From: a candidate division WOR-3 bacterium
Lineage (GTDB): Bacteria; Hydrothermota; Hydrothermia; B15-G9; WFZT01
Length of the DNA: 14,367 nt
Assembly (NCBI GenBank): GCA_027053075.1
Contig: JALUEE010000050.1
Location: forward strand, 1-14,367
Direction: 5' to 3'
Every line of letters begins with the position of its first letter. Positions within the stretch are counted from its first letter, which is position 1. Of the stretch, positions 3,242 to 14,367 are shown one piece after another. A program made the position numbers and the translations under genes. The notes beneath the pieces were generated by a model, which saw only the letters and a list, made by a program, of their open reading frames with translations, had not been told where the DNA came from and ran no database searches.

Positions 3242-3457
3242 CTGACGTCACCCACGAATTTCTGGAAAATAACACCTCATCCCTTACCACGACTACAAAA
3301 AGGTGTACTACGCTCAATATTTGAACACTCTCTTTATACGGTATAAACGAATATATCCTTCCGGTAAAAGTTGTTGATTTAGTGCGAAAAATTGAATTTC
3401 CCGCCCAGATTGCGTTGTATAAATATACATGAAAAGCAAAAACATGGGTGATGTCAG
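3242..3457 (+). mobile_element. MITE copy A (216 bp, non-autonomous)
   Basis: Terminal inverted repeats CTGACGTCACCCACG / CATGGGTGATGTCAG. 10-bp direct repeat GGTGACGGGT at 3232-3241 and 3458-3467. Reverse complement of 13976-14191 with 2 mismatches by manual comparison. Confidence 0.92.
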
Positions 3458-3706: not shown

Positions 3707-3735
3707 TTGACATTATTAATTTAATTACTTAAAAT
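3707..3735 (+). promoter_or_regulatory. Sigma70-type promoter of the arsR-psr operon (likely leaderless or near-leaderless mRNA)
   Basis: TTGACA (3707-3712), 17 nt spacer, TAAAAT (3730-3735). ATG is 9 nt after the -10 element and has no SD. Confidence 0.75.
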
Positions 3736-3744
3736 TTTTGTACT

Positions 3745-4083
3745 ATGGATAAAGAGACTTATCTCAACGAATTGACACACCTACAGGCGGAATTGTGCAA
3801 GGCATTCGTTAACCCTGTGAGAATTGCCATTATAAAGGTTTTATCTGATGGAGAGGAATCAGTTTCTGAGATAGCCTCAAAAGTGGGTGTTCCCATCCAG
3901 AATATTTCACAACACGTGAAGATCCTAAAAGATGCAGGAATTGTCGGGATGAGGCGTGATGGCCACAAAATTTACTATTCACTTGAAGACAAAAGAATTG
4001 TGGAAATCTGCGACTTGATGAAAGATATCCTCATCGAAATTATGAGGAAGAAAGCCAGTATCTTTCATAAGAATATTGAATAG
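3745..4083 (+). CDS. ArsR/SmtB family transcriptional regulator
   Basis: KAFVNPVRIAII..L..GE.SVSEIA..VG....NISQHVKILKDAGIV..RRDG..IYYSL winged-HTH pattern. Two Cys, C18 and C89. Confidence 0.92.
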   Translation: MDKETYLNELTHLQAELCKAFVNPVRIAIIKVLSDGEESVSEIASKVGVPIQNISQHVKILKDAGIVGMRRDGHKIYYSLEDKRIVEICDLMKDILIEIMRKKASIFHKNIE

Positions 4084-4094
4084 GAGGTTTTTTT

Positions 4095-6446
4095 ATGAGT
4101 AATGGGAGGTTAACTCGTAGACAATTTTTGAAAGGAACTGCCCTTGTGGCAGGTACGACCATCCTCCCTACCGGTCTCGTGAGGGCACAGCGCCGGCCCA
4201 CTACCTGGCACGGCAGGGAGCGTGTAACGGAAATTCCCTCTACCTGTGAGATGTGCTTCTGGAGATGTGGAATAATCGGTGAAGTGAAAGATGGAAGACT
4301 GGTGAAGATCAAAGGAAATCCACTTCATCCAAACAACCGTGGAAAAATATGCGCACGTGGTAACGCGGGGCTCAAGACTCTCTACGATCCAGATAGATTG
4401 AAATACCCGCTCATGAGAGTGGGGAAACGCGGTGAAGCCAAGTGGAGAAGGGTTTCATGGAATGAAGCGCTCGATTACATGGTCGATAAACTGAAAAACA
4501 TAAAATCCAAATACGGGCCCGAGGCAATTGCCATGTTCCCCCACGGAGTTTCGTCAAGGCTGCTGAAATCCGTATTTGCCAGCTGGGGAGTTGTTAACTT
4601 TGCCGTTGCATCCTTCAACCACTGTAAAGGGCCAAGAGACGTGGGATTTAAGCTCACTTTTGGCACATCACCTGGCTCTCCTGAACGGCTTGACCTACCC
4701 AATGCGAGCATGATTGTGCTTATAGGCTCACATCTTGGTGAAAATATTCACACAGGGCAGGTGAGAGAATTTGCCGAAGCTATTGGAAGAGGTGCAAAGA
4801 TTGTTGTTGTAGACCCCAGATTCTCCACAGCCGCATCCAAGGCACACTGGTGGCTACCAATAAGGCCAGGGTCTGATATTGCTTTGCTTCTTGCCTGGAT
4901 TAACGTTCTCATTGAAAAAGACCTCTACGATAAAGAATTCGTCAACCGATATACATACGGATTTGAGGAACTTAAAAAGGCAATAAAGCCTTACACGCCG
5001 GAATGGGCAGAAAAAGTCACAGACATCCCGGCCTCAACCATCAGAGAAATCGCTGTTGAGATGGGAATTAGGAAACCGTCTGTCCTTGTCCATCCCGGAC
5101 GACATACGGTGTGGTACGGAAACGATGTTCAGAGATCAAGAGCGATAGCTATTCTGGTTGCACTCCTTGGTTCATGGGGAAAGCCGGGAGGCTATTTTCT
5201 CCCGACCCCTCTTAAAAAATCCAAATGTCCATGCCCTAAACAGGAGAAACCGCCAAAGGATGTTTGTGAGGCCAGTGGCAAAGACATTTATCCATTTCAC
5301 GAGGAAGGTGTGCCATCACAATGTGTGGTAGATGCTACACTAACAGGCAAACCCTATCCGATAAAGGCCTGGATCACCTATGGAACAAACATAATTCAAT
5401 CCATTCCACAGCCCGAGAGGACTATTAAAGCAATTGAAAAACTCGATCTGCTCGTTGCCATCGATATTCTGCCGACCGACCCCTCACTCTACGCCGATGT
5501 TATTCTCCCAGAGGCGACATACCTTGAAAGATATGACCTGCCTTTTGTCGTTTCCAACTGGACTGACCCTTATGTAGCAATTCGTCAGCCTGTTGTAAAA
5601 CCACTATTCCAGTCAAAAGGACCTTTCTGGATTGCCAAAGAAGTATCTAAACGCCTTGGACTCAAAAACTGCTTACCATGCAACAGCGAAGAGGAGATGA
5701 TCGACAAAATCCTTGAACCCTTAAACATTTCACTTGGGGATTTGACCAACAAAGGAGTCCTGAGTTTCCCCGGCAGGCCATATGACACAAGGAATCTCAG
5801 ATTTAGAACCCCAACAGGCAAGATTGAGCTTTATTCAACGAAGCTCGCTGCCAAAGGCTTTAGTCCGATTCCAGTCTTCGAACCAGTTGATGAGCCACCT
5901 AAGGGTTATTTCAGGCTCATTTACGGCCGCTCCCCTGTTCATTCATTCACGAGGACTGTGAATAATGAGTGGCTGGATGAAATTTACCCTGAGAACAGGG
6001 TGTGGCTCAACGAAAAGGCAGCAGAAAAAATGGGCATCAAGGATGGAGACGAGGTCTATCTCGTTAATCAGGACGGTGTCAAAGAAGGTCCGGTAAAGGT
6101 TTTCGTAACACCGGGTATCAGAGATGACTGCGTTTTCATTGTCCACGGATTCGGACAGAAAAATCCCATGATGAGGAGAGCTTACAACAAAGGTATTTCG
6201 GACTCCTTCTTGATGACAAGAATCAAGCCTGATCCAATCGCAGGCTCTACGGGAATGAGGGTGAATTTCGTGAAGATCGAAAAGAATGGCAAGCTCCTTG
6301 AATACACGCCCGAGGGATACGAAGAGCGTCTAAAAGAAATGAAAGCGGCCCATGTGACTCCGACCATAAAGATTCAGAAACCCGCGAATGTCCAGCCCGA
6401 GCAACCTCAGCCACAGGAAGAGGAAGAAGAAGAGGAAGGATGCTAA
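4095..6446 (+). CDS. psrA: Polysulfide/thiosulfate reductase catalytic subunit (PsrA/PhsA-type Mo/W-bisPGD enzyme), Tat-exported
   Basis: Tat motif TRRQFLK; FS0 motif CEMCFWRC-x27-C; YDPDRLKYP; candidate Mo-ligand Cys in SFNHCKGP; HPGRHTVWYG resembles Thermus PsrA; ADVILPEATYLER; SD AGGAGGT. Confidence 0.85.
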   Translation: MSNGRLTRRQFLKGTALVAGTTILPTGLVRAQRRPTTWHGRERVTEIPSTCEMCFWRCGIIGEVKDGRLVKIKGNPLHPNNRGKICARGNAGLKTLYDPDRLKYPLMRVGKRGEAKWRRVSWNEALDYMVDKLKNIKSKYGPEAIAMFPHGVSSRLLKSVFASWGVVNFAVASFNHCKGPRDVGFKLTFGTSPGSPERLDLPNASMIVLIGSHLGENIHTGQVREFAEAIGRGAKIVVVDPRFSTAASKAHWWLPIRPGSDIALLLAWINVLIEKDLYDKEFVNRYTYGFEELKKAIKPYTPEWAEKVTDIPASTIREIAVEMGIRKPSVLVHPGRHTVWYGNDVQRSRAIAILVALLGSWGKPGGYFLPTPLKKSKCPCPKQEKPPKDVCEASGKDIYPFHEEGVPSQCVVDATLTGKPYPIKAWITYGTNIIQSIPQPERTIKAIEKLDLLVAIDILPTDPSLYADVILPEATYLERYDLPFVVSNWTDPYVAIRQPVVKPLFQSKGPFWIAKEVSKRLGLKNCLPCNSEEEMIDKILEPLNISLGDLTNKGVLSFPGRPYDTRNLRFRTPTGKIELYSTKLAAKGFSPIPVFEPVDEPPKGYFRLIYGRSPVHSFTRTVNNEWLDEIYPENRVWLNEKAAEKMGIKDGDEVYLVNQDGVKEGPVKVFVTPGIRDDCVFIVHGFGQKNPMMRRAYNKGISDSFLMTRIKPDPIAGSTGMRVNFVKIEKNGKLLEYTPEGYEERLKEMKAAHVTPTIKIQKPANVQPEQPQPQEEEEEEEGC

Positions 6447-6459
6447 GGAGGATTAGGAA

Positions 6460-7200
6460 ATGACAAAATATGCAATGGTCATAAACGTTGAGAAATGTGT
6501 TGGATGCCATGCCTGTGAACTCGCCTGTAAGGCAGAGTGGGGAGTGGCTGAAAACGAACACAGAACCTGGGTAAAGCCAACCTATCCCCAGTCCCTTGGA
6601 GGAAAAGGATTATTTGATTTAGTCGCTGCTTTTTATGTGGGTCAATGCAATCATTGTGACCATCCTACATGCGTGGAAGCGTGCCCCACTGGGGCAACTT
6701 TTAAACGAGAAGACGGAATCGTGGTAGTCGATTACGACCTTTGCATAGGCTGCGGTTACTGCGTGGAGGCATGCCCCTATGGTGCACGTTACATTCATCC
6801 TACTCTCAAAAAAGTGGATAAATGTGACTTCTGCGCACCAAGACTTGAAAAGGGCCTCGAGCCTGCATGTGTCGAGACCTGTATAACTGGTGCCAAGGTC
6901 TTTGGTGACCTCGAAGACCCCACAAGTGAAGTTTACAAGCTGGTTTATGAGGAGGGTGCGCGCGGTATAACTTCAGAAGAGGTTAATATTGGCCCCAACG
7001 TCTATTACATCGGAGACGAGAAAAAAGTTGACCTGATAATCAATAAGTTCCCGCCGAGAAAGCCCAAGCTGCCAACACCTGCTTCAATATGGGAAAAGCT
7101 CTTGAAACCTCTACTTGGACTCGGAGTGGTAGCCTCCTTCCTTGGAGCATCAGTTGCCTACTTCATCCAGCTTTTCAAAGGTGAAGATAAATTTGAATAA
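6460..7200 (+). CDS. psrB: 4x[4Fe-4S] electron-transfer subunit (PsrB/PhsB/NrfC-like) with C-terminal TM helix
   Basis: CVGCHACELAC, CNHCDHPTCVEACP, CIGCGYCVEACP, CDFC..ACVETC. Hydrophobic C-terminus LLGLGVVASFLGASVAYFI. Confidence 0.88.
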   Translation: MTKYAMVINVEKCVGCHACELACKAEWGVAENEHRTWVKPTYPQSLGGKGLFDLVAAFYVGQCNHCDHPTCVEACPTGATFKREDGIVVVDYDLCIGCGYCVEACPYGARYIHPTLKKVDKCDFCAPRLEKGLEPACVETCITGAKVFGDLEDPTSEVYKLVYEEGARGITSEEVNIGPNVYYIGDEKKVDLIINKFPPRKPKLPTPASIWEKLLKPLLGLGVVASFLGASVAYFIQLFKGEDKFE

Positions 7201-7215
7201 AAGGAGTGGAGAAAA

Positions 7216-7986
7216 ATGAGAAAAGAAATCCTTGAAAAATTCTTACCGTTAACATTTGAGGAGAGGGAAGAGCTCAAGAAAAAGAAGATCAAAAAGCACG
7301 ATATCGCCACCATTTATCTCCACTGGTTCAATGCCACAGTATGGTTTATCGAGCTTATAACGGGCTCAGCCCTCATCATTTCAAAATACTACAAGTTCAC
7401 CCCCCACTTCTGGCAAAAATTGTGGATGGAGATCTTTGGCACGCGGGCAAATATGCTGAAATTCCACATCTTCACAGGAGTTCTATGGATAATCGTCCTC
7501 CTTATCTACGCAGTTTTTGGCTACAAAAATTATCTCTGGGGCTACTTCAAAAACATGCTACTCCTCACTAAAGATGACATCCTGTGGGTTTACTACAAAG
7601 GCATGCAGATACTCGGCAAAAAGGTTCAGCTTCCTCCTCAGGGAATTTATAACGGTGGTCAAAAGCTCTACGCGTGGGATGTTGCCATTGGCACAATTCT
7701 TATAGCCATTACTGGTCCCATTATGGCATTTCACCTTGGAAGTGTCACTCTCGTTAGATGGGCAATAGCTGTCCACTTCCTCGCAGTTGGGCTTGTTCTC
7801 ATGGGACTTTTCGTTCACATCTACATGGCAGCCTTCATGCCCGAGGAACGCCAGTCCTTCTTCTCCATGTTCACCGGGTATGTAAACGAGCTCTATGCCT
7901 ACGAACACCACTACAAGTGGTGGAGAGAGATGGTCAAAGAGCGTGAAAAATGGCTCGAAGAGTATAAGAAAGAGATTGAAAAATAA
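7216..7986 (+). CDS. Diheme cytochrome b membrane anchor (FdnI/PhsC-like)
   Basis: Four TM segments with His in YLHWFNA, KFHIFTG, AVHFL and FVHIY. 'PPQGIYNGGQK' and 'SMFTGYV...A.EHH..W' resemble FdnI. Confidence 0.85.
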   Translation: MRKEILEKFLPLTFEEREELKKKKIKKHDIATIYLHWFNATVWFIELITGSALIISKYYKFTPHFWQKLWMEIFGTRANMLKFHIFTGVLWIIVLLIYAVFGYKNYLWGYFKNMLLLTKDDILWVYYKGMQILGKKVQLPPQGIYNGGQKLYAWDVAIGTILIAITGPIMAFHLGSVTLVRWAIAVHFLAVGLVLMGLFVHIYMAAFMPEERQSFFSMFTGYVNELYAYEHHYKWWREMVKEREKWLEEYKKEIEK

Positions 7987-8021
7987 CTTCAAGAGGCATG
8001 AATTTGCCTGGAGGTGATAAT

Positions 8022-8567
8022 ATGAAATGGAAACTGTCTCTCCTTCTCCTCCTCATAGGTGGTGTGGCATTTGCCGGCTATTCTGAGTTTTACAGAAATG
8101 CCGGTGATTTTCTCAACACCATCGGAGGAAATTTCAAATACGAGGTAACTCCAACAGGGCTGAAAGCGATGCTCGCAAGCGGCTCGAACGGTATCCTCAT
8201 TATCGATCTGAGACCTGCATCGCAGTACAAAAAAGGGCACATACCGGGAGCGATAAATATTCCTTACCGTGAACTCTTTTCACCCCAGTACATAAACAAC
8301 CTGCCGAAGGACAAGAAGATCATCATTTACTGCCCCGACGAATCCATATCACCCTACATCCTGGCCCTGCTAAGGGCAGCCGGATACGATGCCTGGCAGC
8401 TCAAGGGAGGCTACAGGGCCTGGCTGCATGGTGGTGCAGTAGCAAAAGCACCTGCCGCACCACCTCAAATCAAGAAGACAGAGAGGAAACAACCTGTAAA
8501 GGTACAGGTGCAGCAGCCGGAAGAAGAACCCGAAGATGAGGGAGAAGGAGAGGAAGAGGGCTGTTAA
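8022..8567 (+). CDS. Exported single-domain rhodanese with acidic EEEGC tail
   Basis: IIDLR...Y.KGHIPGAINIP, IIIYC, LKGGY.AW. Signal peptide MKWKLSLLLLLIGGVAFA. Start set at 8022 after SD GGAGGT. Confidence 0.88.
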   Translation: MKWKLSLLLLLIGGVAFAGYSEFYRNAGDFLNTIGGNFKYEVTPTGLKAMLASGSNGILIIDLRPASQYKKGHIPGAINIPYRELFSPQYINNLPKDKKIIIYCPDESISPYILALLRAAGYDAWQLKGGYRAWLHGGAVAKAPAAPPQIKKTERKQPVKVQVQQPEEEPEDEGEGEEEGC

Positions 8568-8581
8568 AAGGAGGTAAAACC

Positions 8582-9526
8582 ATGCGTAAGCTAAAATATG
8601 TAGCGTTGATTGGTGTTTTCATGGTCGTGTCTCTTGTTAGGGCACAGACCATACCACCAACCCATATAGTCACCACCGAATGGCTCGCAAAGTACATCAA
8701 CAACCCCAACATCGTGCTAATTGATGTTCGCTCGCAGTCAAGGTATCTCAGGGGTCATCTGCCCGGTGCCGTGAATATTGACTGGAAAGACTTCACAGAT
8801 GATAGAAATGGTATTCCAAGATTCCTGCCCACTCCAGCGAGATTTGAGGAGCTAATGCGTTATGCGGGAGTGAATAACAATTCAATTGTGATTGTTTACG
8901 CCAGCACAAAAGGAACACCAAAGCGGGCAAACGACGCCTCACGCGTTCTCTGGACCATGTACTACTTTGGTATGGACAACATTGCCATTCTTGATGGTGG
9001 AATCACAAAGTGGCTTGACGAGGGACGTCCCATCGAGAAAGGACTTGTAATGAAGAAGAGAGGCACATTCAAAATCACAAAGGTAAGAAGAAACGTCCTA
9101 ACAGTATTCGATGACATACTCGTTGCAAGATACACGGGGCTTCAAATCGTTGATATTCGTCCACCCTGGATGTATATGGGAGAAACAAAAGATGCAAAAG
9201 CTGCAAGGTACGGGCATATTCCCGGTGCTTACAACTACTTTATCGGCAAGATATACAGGAAAGTTGGACATGCCTACTGCTTCCCGACAAAAGATGCGGC
9301 CCTGAAGCTTGCCCAGAAGGTTGGTCTGGACCTCAATAAGCCTATGGCAGTTTACTGTAATGCAGGCCACTGCGGGGCAGGTGGATGGATTATCCTGAAG
9401 TTTATTGCAGGTGCGAAAGACGTTTCGGTTTATGACGGCTCACTCTATGAATACACGAGGATGCCCGTAAATATGAAGCTTGGACCTGCAAGAGGAACAC
9501 TCTGGGAGATTGATAGATTGAAATAA
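8582..9526 (+). CDS. Exported tandem-domain rhodanese/sulfurtransferase (SseA/YnjE-like)
   Basis: IVTTEWL, LIDVR, GHLPGAVNIDW, ILDGG..KW, GHIPGA, active-site VYCNAGHC, VYDGSL.EY. Signal peptide ending VRA. Confidence 0.9.
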   Translation: MRKLKYVALIGVFMVVSLVRAQTIPPTHIVTTEWLAKYINNPNIVLIDVRSQSRYLRGHLPGAVNIDWKDFTDDRNGIPRFLPTPARFEELMRYAGVNNNSIVIVYASTKGTPKRANDASRVLWTMYYFGMDNIAILDGGITKWLDEGRPIEKGLVMKKRGTFKITKVRRNVLTVFDDILVARYTGLQIVDIRPPWMYMGETKDAKAARYGHIPGAYNYFIGKIYRKVGHAYCFPTKDAALKLAQKVGLDLNKPMAVYCNAGHCGAGGWIILKFIAGAKDVSVYDGSLYEYTRMPVNMKLGPARGTLWEIDRLK

Positions 9527-9533
9527 AAGGCCA

Positions 9534-9578
9534 GGGTGGGAGGGGGCTTCGCCCAAAGGGCGAAGCCCCCTCCCACCC
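9534..9578. other. Perfect 21-bp intergenic hairpin (3-nt loop)
   Basis: GGGTGGGAGGGGGCTTCGCCC-AAA-GGGCGAAGCCCCCTCCCACCC. No U-tract; followed by the SD of the next gene. Confidence 0.85.
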
Positions 9579-9607: not shown

Positions 9608-10048
9608 ATGAGGTTACACAACAAACTAATTGCAATAGCAATGCTGGGATTCCTTGTGACCGGCCTTAACGCACAGGTGAAATCTCCAAAGAAGCTCGCA
9701 GAAGAGTACTGGCCATCTGTCCACTGGGTGACTCCACAGCAAGCCTACAAGATGATGAAGACCACCCCAAACCTGGTGGTGATCGATATAAGAGAGAGTG
9801 GTGAATACATGCTCGGTCACCTACCAGGCGCCATATTCATTCCACGTGGATTTCTCGAATTCAGGATCGGATTCATTACCAAGGACGCAAATAGGCCGAT
9901 AATTGTGTACTGCCGTAGTGGTCACAGAGCAACTTTCGCGTACGAGCAACTGGTAAGAATGGGCTATAAAAAGGTCTACAACTTGAAGGGTGGGTTCCTG
10001 GGCTGGAAGAAGGCCGGACTGCCCATAAGCAGAAAGCCCAACGGCTGA
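9608..10048 (+). CDS. Exported single-domain rhodanese (PspE/Sud-like)
   Basis: VIDIRE..EY..GHLPGA, VYCRSGHRA, VYNLKGGF.GW...GLP. Signal peptide ending LNA. SD AAGGAGGT. Confidence 0.92.
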   Translation: MRLHNKLIAIAMLGFLVTGLNAQVKSPKKLAEEYWPSVHWVTPQQAYKMMKTTPNLVVIDIRESGEYMLGHLPGAIFIPRGFLEFRIGFITKDANRPIIVYCRSGHRATFAYEQLVRMGYKKVYNLKGGFLGWKKAGLPISRKPNG

Positions 10049-10054
10049 ATTGGA

Positions 10055-10099
10055 GTTGGGGGTGGGGTGGGCGCCGAAGGCGCCCACCCCACCCCCAAC
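10055..10099. other. Perfect 21-bp intergenic hairpin (3-nt loop)
   Basis: GTTGGGGGTGGGGTGGGCGCC-GAA-GGCGCCCACCCCACCCCCAAC. No U-tract. Confidence 0.85.
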
Positions 10100-10120: not shown

Positions 10121-10636
10121 ATGTTCGATGAAGAAAAAAATCTGAATCCTTACATCGGAGGACTTTTGCTTGGCCTCGTTTTACTCGTTACTTTCGTCAT
10201 TTTTGGCCGTGGTCTCGGCGCTTCCGGGGCCGTGGATAGATTCTCCGCATTTATCATCAGTATTTTCGCTCCTAATTGGATTAAGGCCCATCCATACTGG
10301 CATAAATACTATGTTCATGGCCACACACCGCTAAATAACTTTCTCGTATTTCTCCTGATCGGTGTTTTCTTTGGAGGGCTCGTCACAGCCTATTTTCAGG
10401 GCAAGCTAAAGATAAAAGTTCAGCACGGTCCAAGAATTTCCAAAACTCAGAGGTATGTTATCGCATTCATAGGCGGAATGATTCTTGCTATAGCTACAAG
10501 GTTCTCCCGCGGCTGTACCAGCGGTCAGGCATTGACAGGTGGTGCTGAGCTTGCCGTTGGCAGCTGGATTTTCATGATTGCATTTTTCATTTCGGGACCC
10601 ATTACAGCTCTCTTTATTAAAAAATTCTGGAGGTAG
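10121..10636 (+). CDS. YeeE/YedE family sulfur transporter component (first)
   Basis: NPYIGG, GLGASG, 'R...GCTSGQALTG' Cys motif, multiple TMs. Start placed at ATG 10121 after SD AAGGAGG, not GTG 10067. Confidence 0.88.
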   Translation: MFDEEKNLNPYIGGLLLGLVLLVTFVIFGRGLGASGAVDRFSAFIISIFAPNWIKAHPYWHKYYVHGHTPLNNFLVFLLIGVFFGGLVTAYFQGKLKIKVQHGPRISKTQRYVIAFIGGMILAIATRFSRGCTSGQALTGGAELAVGSWIFMIAFFISGPITALFIKKFWR

Positions 10637-10641
10637 AAGAA

Positions 10642-11223
10642 ATGGCACCAATTCTAAAATTTTATCACGTACCGTTTTTCTGGTATTTTGTTCTGACCCT
10701 CATAACAGGCTTCTTTTTCGGGATTACCCTCGCAATTTCAGGATTCTACGACACTAAAAAACTCACCGGAGTGTTCTTTTTTGATGACATGGCCGTTCTC
10801 AAAGTCATGTTCTCTGCCATTGTAGTCGCAAGTATAGGCCTCTACCTTCTCGTGGACCTCGGAACACTTGATTTAACAAGGCTTTACATTCCCAAAACAT
10901 ACTGGATTTCGCAGCTTGTAGGAGGCTTGCTATTTGGTATTGGGTTTATGCTTTCCGGATACTGTCCGGGAACAAGCTTTGTATCCCTTGCCTATGGCAG
11001 TATAGATGCACTTTTCGTAATCCTTGGGATGATCTTTGGGATGTGGGTGTTTGGATTTGGATACAAACTCTGGAAGGGGCTTTATCTGGCTGGCTATCTT
11101 GGGAGAATTACCCTTGATAGATTGTTTGGAATGAACCGATGGATTATCATCGGGGCTGTGTTTGTTATCGCAGTCTTCGCTTTTATCCAGATTGAAATTT
11201 TTGAGCAAAAGAAGAAATCCTGA
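10642..11223 (+). CDS. YeeE/YedE family sulfur transporter component (second)
   Basis: G..FG..L..SG, 'VLKVMFSAI', 'GGLLFGIGF.LSGYCPGT' Cys motif, multiple TMs. Confidence 0.88.
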   Translation: MAPILKFYHVPFFWYFVLTLITGFFFGITLAISGFYDTKKLTGVFFFDDMAVLKVMFSAIVVASIGLYLLVDLGTLDLTRLYIPKTYWISQLVGGLLFGIGFMLSGYCPGTSFVSLAYGSIDALFVILGMIFGMWVFGFGYKLWKGLYLAGYLGRITLDRLFGMNRWIIIGAVFVIAVFAFIQIEIFEQKKKS

Positions 11224-11652: not shown

Positions 11653-11867
11653 CTGATATCACCCATGTTTTTGCTTGTCATGTATACTTATACAATACAA
11701 TCTGGGCGAGAAATTCAATTTTTCGCAGTAAATCAACAATTTTACCTGAAGGATATATTCGTTTATACCGCATAAAGAGAGTGTTCAAATATTGAGCGTA
11801 GTACACCTTTTTGAAGACCTGGCAAGGGATAAGGTGTTATTATCCAGAAATTCGTGGGTGACGTCAG
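11653..11867 (-). mobile_element. MITE copy B (215 bp, diverged)
   Basis: Ends CTGATATCACCCATG / CGTGGGTGACGTCAG. 10-bp direct repeat GGATGGGAGG at 11643-11652 and 11868-11877. About 16 substitutions and 1 deletion versus copy C by manual count. Confidence 0.9.
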
Positions 11868-11952
11868 GGATGGGAGGGGGGAATTTCCGAACAAGCTCAT
11901 TTTATCTTTCAATTTATCCTGGAGATTTGGAATATTTAGCCCTTCTCTTATA

Positions 11953-11986
11953 TCCTTTCCCCGCAGGTATTTATGCGGGGAGAGGA
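11953..11986. repeat. REP-like palindrome
   Basis: TCCTTTCCCCGCA-8nt-TGCGGGGAGAGGA, near-identical to 2827-2861. Confidence 0.7.
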
Positions 11987-12043
11987 ATCGTTCGCGTTTG
12001 GCTGGATTAAATTTCCCTCGTAAAGGGTTTAAACTAATGCCCT

Positions 12044-13831
12044 ATGTGGGCTATTCTCCTCGCAGTTTCTATAATACTCAGTCTGTGGGTCTACAGGGGT
12101 GCATTTAAGCGAGCCTGGTATCTTGTGTTACTACGTACACTATCGCTATTCCTGCTACTTTTGGTAGCCCTCTCCCCCATCTTCCATAGAAAAAAGGTCG
12201 TGCCCACGGAGGTTGATGTCCTTATCGATAAATCGGGAAGCATGGGCTACCCCGATAAGGCCAAATTTCTAAAAGCTACCCTGGAAGACCTTAAAAATCT
12301 CTCATACAGCGGAATTTCTCTGAGTTTTTTCAGTTTTGACACAACTTTTGATCGAGGCATAAATTTGGACTTTGGGGGCAAAACAAACATTGGGCTTGCC
12401 ATAGATTCGGCAAAATCAAGGTTTATTGTGCTCCTCTCAGACGGTTTGAATAATCGGGGAAGTTTTCCGTCCGTTAAGGGCAAGAAAGTATTGGCCTTTC
12501 CTCCACCAACCTCAAAGGCTCTCATAAAGGAATTTTCCTTCAAGCCTGTGATCGTCGAGGGTGTATCAGATACAATAAGGGTAACCTCCGCCGTCACAGG
12601 GAAAATCGAAATTTATGAAGGTGGTAAGGCTATTTATTCCGGGAAGGTAGCAAAAAATAAACCAGCCGAAATTATTTTAAATCTGAAAACCCCAGGATTT
12701 CATACCCTGCAGATGAAGATTAATGGGAAGATCGCCCGAAAATTTACCGTCAGGGTTATCAAAAGGGGGAAGCGTGTCTTGATTTACGCTTCACATCCTG
12801 ACGTGAACATCAGATTCTTGAGGATGTATATCGAATATGCAGGGAACATTTCGCCAGATTTTGTTGTAAAAACAAAAAAAGGTACACGAGAATACAGGCC
12901 AGACACGGTAATAGACCTAAAAAGTTTTGAGCCTTCCGGGTACGATTTCTACATAATGATCGACCCCTCAATTGACATGATTAAGCCCCTGGAACATGGG
13001 GAAAAAGGACTTGTAATCTTCACAAGGACTCCAGTGGTATTGCCCGAGCTACTTGGCGGTCAGTACCTGCCTTCAAAAATGACCGGGGAACTTTATCCAC
13101 ACTGGAGGGACACCATACTTGCCCCGGTAGGCTATATTTGGGTTCTCAATCGCTATCCACCTGAATCAGAGACCCCGGTCTTTATTAAAGTTGCTAATAG
13201 AAACGTGCCACTTTTGTTTCTAACCGGGCGCCTTGCCTTCCTCATGTCTGGAGACTTCTTCAAGGAGGCACTTTTTGACTTTAAAACCTTTTCGAGGATA
13301 CTCGACCTCGTGTTCTCAAGGCTGATCCCTGAAGGTAGCTTTTTTGTTGAAACACCCTCGAGGCAGTTTGAAAAGGGAGAAAAAATCCCTCTGGTAGCAT
13401 ATGCTTTTGATAAGTTTGGCAACGCTGTGGATACTCTATTCCCATTTGTCAAAATCGGGGATAGAAAGTATCCAATGAATTACGTCGGAAATGGAAAGTA
13501 TGTAACTTCGATAGCAGCAAAAGATACTGGAAAGGTCAAGGCAAGTGTAGTTTTTAAAGGCCCCGGGGGATTTGTTAAAGAAGAGAGGATAACCTTTAGG
13601 ATTCGCTCGATCAGCGAGGAGAAACCCACACCAGAGGTTGACCTGGCATTTTTAAGGTCAATTGGAGAAGTCGTGACATCAAAGAAGGCACTTCACCAAT
13701 TCCTGAAATCTATCAAGCCTACCACTGTAAGAGAGAAAATCAATCTCAGGGACTACCTAGCCCTTATCCTGCTTGCATTTGCACTTCTTGGAGTTGAATG
13801 GTTCCTTCGAAGGTCAAACGGGGTTGTGTAA
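12044..13831 (+). CDS. Membrane-anchored vWA-domain protein
   Basis: Two N-terminal hydrophobic segments; MIDAS-like IDKSGSM...TNIG.AI...LLSDG; C-terminal TM ending 'LLGVEWFLRR'. Confidence 0.8.
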   Translation: MWAILLAVSIILSLWVYRGAFKRAWYLVLLRTLSLFLLLLVALSPIFHRKKVVPTEVDVLIDKSGSMGYPDKAKFLKATLEDLKNLSYSGISLSFFSFDTTFDRGINLDFGGKTNIGLAIDSAKSRFIVLLSDGLNNRGSFPSVKGKKVLAFPPPTSKALIKEFSFKPVIVEGVSDTIRVTSAVTGKIEIYEGGKAIYSGKVAKNKPAEIILNLKTPGFHTLQMKINGKIARKFTVRVIKRGKRVLIYASHPDVNIRFLRMYIEYAGNISPDFVVKTKKGTREYRPDTVIDLKSFEPSGYDFYIMIDPSIDMIKPLEHGEKGLVIFTRTPVVLPELLGGQYLPSKMTGELYPHWRDTILAPVGYIWVLNRYPPESETPVFIKVANRNVPLLFLTGRLAFLMSGDFFKEALFDFKTFSRILDLVFSRLIPEGSFFVETPSRQFEKGEKIPLVAYAFDKFGNAVDTLFPFVKIGDRKYPMNYVGNGKYVTSIAAKDTGKVKASVVFKGPGGFVKEERITFRIRSISEEKPTPEVDLAFLRSIGEVVTSKKALHQFLKSIKPTTVREKINLRDYLALILLAFALLGVEWFLRRSNGVV

Positions 13832-13975
13832 TTCTTATATCAATATTGATTGAATATTGACCTTATGAATATCCAGTCAATTACACAAATATTTCCTGTG
13901 AGGAGTTCGCGTTTAAGTTTAATCGAAGGACGATTTAAAATAGTGTTGGAAATATCCCCATTCTCCCCTTAACCC

Positions 13976-14191
13976 CTGACATCACCCATGTTTTTGCTTT
14001 TCATGTATATTTATACAACGCAATCTGGGCGGGAAATTCAATTTTTCGCACTAAATCAACAATTTTTACCGGAAGGATATATTCGTTTATACCGTATAAA
14101 GAGAGTGTTCAAATATTGAGCGTAGTACACCTTTTTGTAGTTGTGGTAAGGGATGAGGTGTTATTTTCCAGAAATTCGTGGGTGACGTCAG
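13976..14191 (-). mobile_element. MITE copy C (216 bp)
   Basis: Ends CTGACATCACCCATG / CGTGGGTGACGTCAG. 10-bp direct repeat CCCTTAACCC at 13966-13975 and 14192-14201. Confidence 0.92.
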
Positions 14192-14367
14192 CCCTTAACC
14201 CCTCCTCCTCCTATAATGTTTGTTGTTATTTATTATGGTGATCACTCACAATATAGAGAAAAACTTTAGAGGAGGTGGAATGAGTGGTTTTTAGATCTTT
14301 CCCCTCCTTGGGGCTTGACCCCGGTAGGAAGATTGGTCCCTCCACCTGGGGTATAAGCCTGGATTGT

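Follow-up and report, generated by a model that had tools for sequence, protein, structure and literature searches.

Gly-Cys-tipped C-terminal arms on a Psr-type molybdoenzyme and a rhodanese of a candidate division WOR-3 bacterium: likely persulfide carriers of periplasmic sulfur operons

The DNA considered here, referred to as the window, is the whole stretch of 14,367 nucleotides analysed on the forward strand of contig JALUEE010000050.1 from a candidate division WOR-3 bacterium (assembly GCA_027053075.1). It contains a compact plus-strand operon with the order arsR-psrA-psrB-cytochrome b561 anchor-three exported rhodaneses-split yeeE pair, in which the intergenic gaps span 5–81 nucleotides (Table 1). 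The catalytic subunit PsrA and the first rhodanese both look to be exported, a periplasmic location being predicted from their leaders, and they finish in the same manner, with a linker, an acidic run and a terminal Gly-Cys. PsrA ends ...KIQKPANVQPEQPQPQEEEEEEEGC, with QEEEEEEEGC as its last residues, and rhodanese 1 ends ...KQPVKVQVQQPEEEPEDEGEGEEEGC, with GEGEEEGC as its last residues. This common ending had been pointed out in a sequence-only reading of the window and is confirmed by the open reading frames (ORFs). The two tails are best explained as two copies of one portable C-terminal arm that is predicted to be flexible and whose single terminal cysteine likely bears sulfane sulfur, in persulfide form, in the periplasm; in the lineage of the window, the catalytic subunit of a Psr-type molybdoenzyme has one of the copies as part of its own chain.

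A bare Gly-Cys end is unremarkable, as about 0.95 would be expected by composition among the 1960 ORFs of the genome with at least 150 amino acids; eight of these end in Cys and two in Gly-Cys, the two being PsrA and rhodanese 1. For an EEEGC end the expectation is 0.0003 against two observed. A fresh duplication of the tail DNA was considered and rejected, because only 33 of the last 60 nucleotides of the two genes are identical and the Gly and Cys codons differ. The AlphaFold2 models have confident cores, with the PsrA extension ordered to about residue 760 (including a helix at 742–752) and the predicted local distance difference test score (pLDDT) falling below 50 for residues 768–783 of PsrA and 168–181 of rhodanese 1. 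Neither tail matches an NCBIfam model at an E-value of 0.05, and a query of the ESM Atlas with the PsrA tail returned no usable match.

The larger of the two hosts has the hallmarks of a Psr/Phs catalytic subunit, namely molybdopterin, Fe4S4 and MGD-binding domains, a Tat leader, adjoining PsrB and anchor genes and a PsrA as its nearest structure (PDB 2VPW, E 1.4e-221, with the core aligned over residues 7–731; mean pLDDT of the model 86.6). The leader is Tat-like (RRQFLK), the Pfam TAT_signal match at E 4.5e-4 being just under the cut-off. The 4Fe-4S ligands are Cys51, Cys54, Cys58 and Cys86, and Cys177 aligns with a cysteine of Thermus thermophilus PsrA that we take to be the Mo ligand. Against the PhsA equivalog model the protein scores 528, below the cut-off of 694, and it is not filed as PhsA proper. 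Rhodanese 1 has a Sec-like hydrophobic leader, read from its sequence, and the best Foldseek matches of its model are rhodaneses. Its Cys104 occupies the active-site position and is kept in 8/8 close rows, within an atypical, acidic loop (CPDESIS here, C(P/Q/E)DESIS across the close rows). Active single-domain rhodaneses of the Sud/GlpE type have an anion-binding loop such as CRSGxR; a basic, Gly-rich loop of this kind is absent from rhodanese 1, and rhodanese 3 has the canonical form.

Conservation indicates that the tip of the tail is under selection, since all of the tailed PsrA homologues end in EGC. Among the best 120 of 3165 PsrA matches, a tail of about 50 residues follows the last core strand in 22, each with this ending, and the other 98 have no Cys tip, although one of them, P0109, has a 35-residue remnant. 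Across the 22 aligned tails the linker varies freely and the net charge of the last ten residues ranges from −1 to −7. An EEEGC end is found in 6/7 close homologues of rhodanese 1, the seventh being on a 700-nucleotide contig and looking, from its sequence, to be frameshifted; none of 21 distant matches ends in Gly-Cys. Loss of the terminal cysteine in close homologues had been set beforehand as one of the points that would overturn the idea, and the cysteine is conserved. In quick trees the tailed PsrA proteins form two groups inside the cytochrome-b-anchored clade, the tail label requiring two changes. A single clade of tailed PsrA is rejected (p-AU, from the approximately unbiased test, 0.0097), and as the tail-less P0109 nests among the tailed rows of the window's group, the tail was lost at least once or else gained a second time.

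With a search at E 1e-100, the operon is present in 4/5 congeneric genomes and in 0/55 other relatives. Both arms are kept in 4/4 of the congeneric operons. The sequence-only reading had described rhodaneses 2 and 3 as rich in Lys and Arg, and both are indeed basic (Table 1). Rhodanese 2, which it had put forward as one possible loader of the arms, is lacking in 3/4 congeneric operons and hence is not required for the arms; it is encoded in the remaining one.

The arm extends well beyond the window. A scan of the DNA of GTDB species genomes for [DE]3-E-E-G-C-stop, with TAA and TGA as the stops, gave 91 matches, of which 80 with flanks were counted and 11 short loci left out. The motif ends an ORF of at least 90 amino acids in 28 of the 80, and 23 of these ORFs encode a PsrA, a rhodanese, a degenerate rhodanese-like protein of SAR324 (a weak fold assignment, Pfam being blank for most copies) or a 140-residue exported TPR-like protein. 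A gene for YeeE, a rhodanese, TusA or Psr adjoins 18 of the 23. The other five ORFs are unrelated, one being a LysM protein by Pfam and the rest judged by eye, and probably reflect chance. The 52 remaining flanked loci gave no match to the same sulfur-gene seed set, although the seeds came from the analysed loci and distant families could be missed. Judged from these sequences, the arm is a portable module on unrelated scaffolds, almost only in sulfur operons, and at least five scaffolds bear it, including PsrA, several types of rhodanese, the TPR-like exported protein and domain-less anchored proteins.

The TPR-like protein is encoded directly upstream of yeeE(-tusA-dsrE), has a conserved N-terminal Cys and a DEGC or EEGC tail, and belongs to no Pfam family, with one weak TPR match. 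Such an end is present in 118 of the 120 homologues listed, a biased figure in that the profile included the tail. Among 401 genomes of Desulfobacterota there are 21 matches, and 18 of 20 complete copies end in DEGC or EEGC. It may be a periplasmic component of the YTD cluster that has so far escaped notice. Two further loci, L067 and L073, encode tandem-rhodanese lipoproteins ending in DEEGC, after genes for a porin, a multihaem cytochrome c and a cytochrome b and with no YeeE in the fetched DNA, an arrangement in which the arm would be paired with a haem enzyme rather than a Mo enzyme.

To describe the arms of Psr operons, the DNA around 36 PsrA matches in Ignavibacteria and Calditrichota was combined with 76 metagenome loci, and the 68 loci with at least 4.5 kb downstream and at least 0.8 kb upstream were scored. 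Where a tail-less PsrA occurs with YeeE, a separate hydrophobic-leader protein ending in G-C or G-C-S/T is encoded in 49/49 operons (44/44 without the motif-scan loci), and where PsrA is tailed, YeeE and a second arm are present in 9/9, so that a separate Gly-Cys-tipped protein is found in 58/58 of the YeeE-containing operons. The ten operons without YeeE include seven with an arm and three with none. On this count the neighbour found most constantly with the arm is YeeE rather than PsrA.

Most often the separate carrier is a rhodanese whose catalytic position is occupied by Ser, Gly or Ala. The tailed-PsrA operons of Ignavibacteria and Calditrichota have minimal carriers of 82–133 residues, composed of a hydrophobic anchor, a Lys/Pro linker and DEGC and with no convincing Pfam domain. 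Because the catalytic Cys is replaced in the former and the latter have only anchor, linker and tip, the terminal Cys would be the sole chemistry of these carriers. In L015 the EEEGC arm is on a rhodanese resembling rhodanese 3, and PsrA has none. Small exported ExtJ-like carriers ending in AGC adjoin psrA in YeeE-less operons (NF040942, E 2.6e-9, below the cut-off, one protein tested). ExtJ is listed as a small protein of unknown function in PMC5877670, and, judged from these relatives alone, the Geobacter protein could be a Cys-arm carrier.

The constancy of YeeE allows a view in which the arm serves the YeeE channel only, for import, export or signalling to ArsR, with PsrA and rhodanese 1 acting as membrane-proximal scaffolds and the Mo site taking free polysulfide or thiosulfate. 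The three arm-less operons all lack YeeE, the TPR-like arm proteins stand directly before yeeE-tusA-dsrE, and the tailed-PsrA operons of Ignavibacteria encode cytochrome b and a YeeE half as one fused protein, all of which would suit such a role. However, an arm protein is still encoded in seven of the ten YeeE-less Psr operons, the rhodanese arms of L067 and L073 stand beside cytochrome genes with no YeeE in the fetched DNA, and the fusion to PsrA is retained in 9/9 cases despite the second arm, and service to the channel alone is considered unlikely.

The second arm of the tailed-PsrA operons also bears on whether the terminal Cys instead undergoes thiol/disulfide redox cycling or tethers two proteins by a disulfide, with no sulfane sulfur carried. 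Disulfides form readily at a single Cys exposed in the periplasm, a second acidic arm able to pair is available in all nine of these operons, and a further conserved Cys in rhodanese 1, and likewise in the TPR-like protein, is a possible resolving partner. Yet 49 operons combine a single arm protein with a tail-less PsrA, two strongly acidic tips would repel one another, a permanent tether has no need of a free terminus on a linker of 20–45 residues and the hosts of the arm are sulfur-transfer folds. Such a role is thus quite improbable, and the specific disulfide link between PsrA and the rhodanese, which had been kept as an alternative from the outset, finds little favour, since a single arm beside a tail-less PsrA is what most operons have.

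In most operons the residues before G-C are Lys-rich (KKKKEGC, KKKADEGC, KLKLGRGCS), the separate arms being mostly K-K-K-x-E-G-C or K-L-G-x-G-C-S, and so it is the terminal Gly-Cys rather than the acidic run that appears as the invariant. This has consequences for the suggestion that the acidic run and Cys bind a metal or metalloid (As, Se or a cofactor-maturation metal), or else mark the C-terminus for sorting or lipidation. Metals can be bound by acidic runs with Cys, the first gene of the operon encodes an ArsR-family regulator, and the ExtJ resemblance of one carrier leads to the selenite/tellurite-linked ext cluster of Geobacter, but the Lys-rich arms exclude a conserved acidic metal site. 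CTERM sorting signals such as MYXO-CTERM and GlyGly-CTERM have a motif followed by a transmembrane helix and a basic cluster; in both tails the Cys is the last residue, with neither element after it, and, as noted above, NCBIfam has no model for them. Metal binding or sorting is therefore very improbable. One contig, L189, has two convergent Psr operons, the first with tailed PsrA, a cytochrome b-YeeE fusion and acidic arms and the second with tail-less PsrA, NrfD and a basic KREGC pseudo-rhodanese; the opposite charges might keep two relays apart.

A persulfide-carrying arm is the preferred reading because the Cys is alone at the very end of a variable, predicted-disordered linker, because at least five scaffolds bear it, because some hosts have no other catalytic residue and because it is nearly confined to sulfane-sulfur operons. 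Periplasmic rhodaneses would draw sulfane sulfur from polysulfide or thiosulfate and load the arm Cys, after which the arm of PsrA would offer Cys-S-S− to its own Mo centre. Here quinol electrons, passed on by cytochrome b and PsrB, would serve to cleave it, giving HS− and restoring the thiol. The other arm, borne by rhodanese 1 in the window and by a domain-less anchored protein in the relatives from Ignavibacteria and Calditrichota, would move sulfur back and forth between this periplasmic pool and the split YeeE channel, at its two invariant cysteines. The Cys of YeeE half 1 is invariant in 35/35 aligned rows, as is that of half 2, although for the latter the rows had been picked on the GYCPG motif. 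We give this scheme, with its putative chemistry, partners and direction of flow, a probability of roughly 0.6. Matches to SoxY (PF13501), DsrA and DsrC (PF04358) were not found in the genome, which is 95% complete, and together with the lack of a TusA match this fits a reductive periplasmic module. The swinging arm of the sequence-only reading gains comparative support from the conserved Gly-Cys, its recurrence on unrelated scaffolds of sulfur operons and the separate arm of tail-less Psr-YeeE operons, whereas the stress of that reading upon acidity is not supported.

Several observations weigh against this scheme. AlphaFold2 leaves the PsrA tip disordered and outside the Mo funnel, and it is by family that PsrA is assumed to act on polysulfide or thiosulfate. 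In some stretches of fetched DNA, arms stand next to YeeE-TusA-DsrE and there is no Psr gene, and so the Mo site is not a universal target, and the three operons with neither arm nor YeeE mean that a Psr of this clade can do without one. The genome gave no match to TusA, a candidate for the cytoplasmic acceptor, and the loci inspected show no selenocysteine variant of the tip. The scored Psr loci are kin, some near-identical, so that the counts describe a pattern rather than independent trials, and 5 of the 68, all in the tail-less set with YeeE, had been selected on the motif and are circular. PsrA columns 94, 186, 203, 343, 404, 405 and 435 separate tailed from sister tail-less proteins and do not generalise to the acidic-arm operons of SAR324. 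Splitting PsrA by arm charge gives three more-positive and two more-negative columns, above most of 35 group splits and below the split that follows the NrfD clade; for charge complementarity, R569 and R571 are a lead only.

The arms can be set beside several known systems. In SoxY, a flexible swinging arm at the C-terminus bears sulfur intermediates from enzyme to enzyme (PMC11237559). Like SoxY, the window proteins are predicted to be exported and have a single Cys after Gly on a predicted-flexible C-terminal arm, but they lack the SoxY fold, GGCGG and SoxZ, their Cys is the last residue and their type of arm is grafted onto unrelated proteins, including the enzyme itself; neither the proteins nor their tails match SoxY models in NCBIfam or Pfam. 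The arm of DsrC/TusE, which ends in Gly-Cys-Val (KGCV in a family member encoded at L189), offers a second likeness. DsrC presents protein-bound sulfur as the substrate of a membrane redox complex; DsrC and TusE are, however, cytoplasmic helical proteins, the window proteins have no match to PF04358 and the tails do not match either. By analogy, the arms may work like SoxY and DsrC yet belong to neither family.

PsrABC of T. thermophilus (PDB 2VPW-2VPZ), the Wolinella succinogenes system with Sud and PhsABC share with the window the aligned PsrA core and the exported rhodaneses encoded alongside. Unlike these, the window operon has a cytochrome b561 anchor and a split YeeE, and its PsrA has its own 54-residue Cys-tipped extension, a comparison that covers the 2VPW chain up to its last 21 residues. 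The title of a reference cited in PMC6378623 states that the single Cys of Sud is needed for polysulfide-sulfur transfer, but Sud uses its rhodanese active-site Cys and not a tail. In MES, the Caldithrix abyssi ergothioneine synthase that depends on a metallopterin, essential cysteines feed a Mo module of the DMSO-reductase family, with a persulfide relay proposed (PMC9516567). Here too a Mo module would be supplied through cysteines of the same polypeptide, although MES is biosynthetic, is fed by a fused cysteine desulfurase and has its relay cysteines within a domain rather than on a free terminal arm.

The YeeE pair of the window resembles YeeE/TsuA-YeeD, PmpAB, SoxT and the YTD systems in being a split YeeE with two cysteines, and the TPR-like arm protein stands directly before yeeE-tusA-dsrE. 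Two cysteines are essential in the split family, and for SoxT the passage of sulfur from a carrier Cys along the YeeE-family cysteines has been proposed, and questioned (PMC11582611). The available parts of PMC12998232, PMC13047784 and PMC13490349 list five to six genes for the YTD cluster and mention no upstream exported Cys-tipped protein. The literature examined, in the parts available, establishes no periplasmic donor for YeeE-type channels, and full-text searches, with most subscription journals outside their scope, found no description of a Cys-tipped tail on PsrA or PhsA or of the arm-bearing families.

A bolder and rather doubtful extension of the arm reading is that the substrate of Psr-type enzymes of this kind is protein-bound sulfur on the Gly-Cys arm and not free polysulfide, possibly as a Cys-S-Cys trisulfide between the two arms of tailed-PsrA operons, akin to a DsrC trisulfide in the periplasm. 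The same arm would then be the missing periplasmic donor or acceptor of YeeE channels, including those of the YTD cluster of sulfur disproportionators, to which the upstream DEGC protein would belong.

Table 1. Coordinates of the operon, the arms and other features; positions refer to the window unless preceded by a locus handle (L)
Feature	Position	Strand	Remarks
sigma70-like site	3707-3735		11/12 matches; before arsR
ArsR/SmtB-family regulator	3745-4083	+	operon head; BigR-like match, below cut-off
PsrA/PhsA-type bis-MGD molybdoenzyme catalytic subunit	4095-6446	+	783 aa
PsrA CPC...C loop, aa 378-391	5226-5270
PsrA C-terminal extension, aa 730-783 (54 residues)	6282-6446	+	short strand and helix to ~aa 752, Pro/Gln linker, acidic run
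PsrA tail, seven Glu	6417-6437	+
PsrA tail, Gly782-Cys783	6438-6443	+
PsrB-type Fe-S subunit	6460-7200	+	16 Cys; C-terminal hydrophobic helix
Cytochrome b561 (FdnI/PhsC-like) membrane anchor	7216-7986	+	not NrfD; PF01292 E 1e-17
Rhodanese 1, exported, single domain with Cys-tipped arm	8022-8567 (alternative ATG 7998)	+	181 aa; PF00581 E 1.4e-18
Rhodanese 1 arm, aa 137-181	8430-8567	+	Ala/Pro/Lys/Gln linker; acidic run from 8520; Gly180-Cys181 8559-8564
Rhodanese 2, exported tandem-domain sulfurtransferase	8582-9526	+	no arm; net charge +16
Rhodanese 3, exported, single domain	9608-10048	+	CRSGHR loop; no arm; net charge +12
Split YeeE/YedE half 1	10121-10636	+	Cys132 (GCTSG); PF04143
Split YeeE/YedE half 2	10642-11223	+	Cys108 (GYCPG); PF04143
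21-bp hairpins	9534-9578, 10055-10099		rhodanese 2/3 gap; rhodanese 3/yeeE gap
216-nt repeat	3242-3457, 11653-11867, 13974-14201		non-coding
50-nt REP-like repeat	2815-2862, 11940-11987		palindromic
595-aa membrane protein	12044-13831
TPR-like arm protein copies	L023:339-752, L056:7254-7664, L063:2302-2721, L071:4160-4579, L008:1073-1462, L080:8004-8504, L069:4781-5308
Tandem-rhodanese lipoproteins	L067:6984-8021, L073:6987-8021
Minimal carriers	L189:15280-15555, L150:6037-6282, L195:6429-6818		end of tailed-PsrA operons; cytochrome b fused to YeeE half
ExtJ-like carriers	L204:9457-9777, L222:9493-9810, L202:13484-13780
Two convergent Psr operons	L189:10001-21193		one contig

Some further features of the window deserve mention. 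The PsrA of this lineage has an internal CPC...C loop together with Cys410, Cys526 and Cys529, of which most homologues have none, and in the alignment T. thermophilus PsrA shows an internal GGC near the position of the loop. Residue 343, which follows the conserved Arg336 by seven positions, is Asn in 19/22 tailed rows and Asp in 52/59 tail-less ones. Two perfect, GC-rich 21-bp hairpins flank the gene of rhodanese 3 and could set the stoichiometry of the transcripts. The 216-nucleotide repeat is MITE-like, with about 25 near-full copies in the genome that are 87–99% identical, and two of its three window copies flank the operon in inverted orientation; the operon as a composite transposon was rejected, these being copies of a genome-wide repeat. 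The REP-like repeat gives 127 BLAST hits in the genome. The 595-residue membrane protein has a vWA-like DxSxS motif by eye and no Pfam or NCBIfam match, and is unrelated to the arms.

The arm is real and conserved and belongs to a broader module that has gone undescribed, to which the window adds the fusion of arm and catalytic subunit, the rule of two arms in operons of this kind and a connection with the YTD-adjacent protein. It bears upon how periplasmic sulfur reductases obtain an unstable and dilute substrate and upon what passes sulfur to channels of the YeeE family. Moreover, the natural fusion ties the arm to a reductase, so that the question can be addressed by one point mutation in one protein. 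A terminal x-G-C on an exported protein provides a simple sequence marker that points to a likely function for several unannotated families, including the Cys-less rhodaneses, the TPR-like protein upstream of YTD clusters, ExtJ-like proteins and domain-less anchored peptides, which occur in Desulfobacterota, SAR324, Ignavibacteria and Calditrichota.

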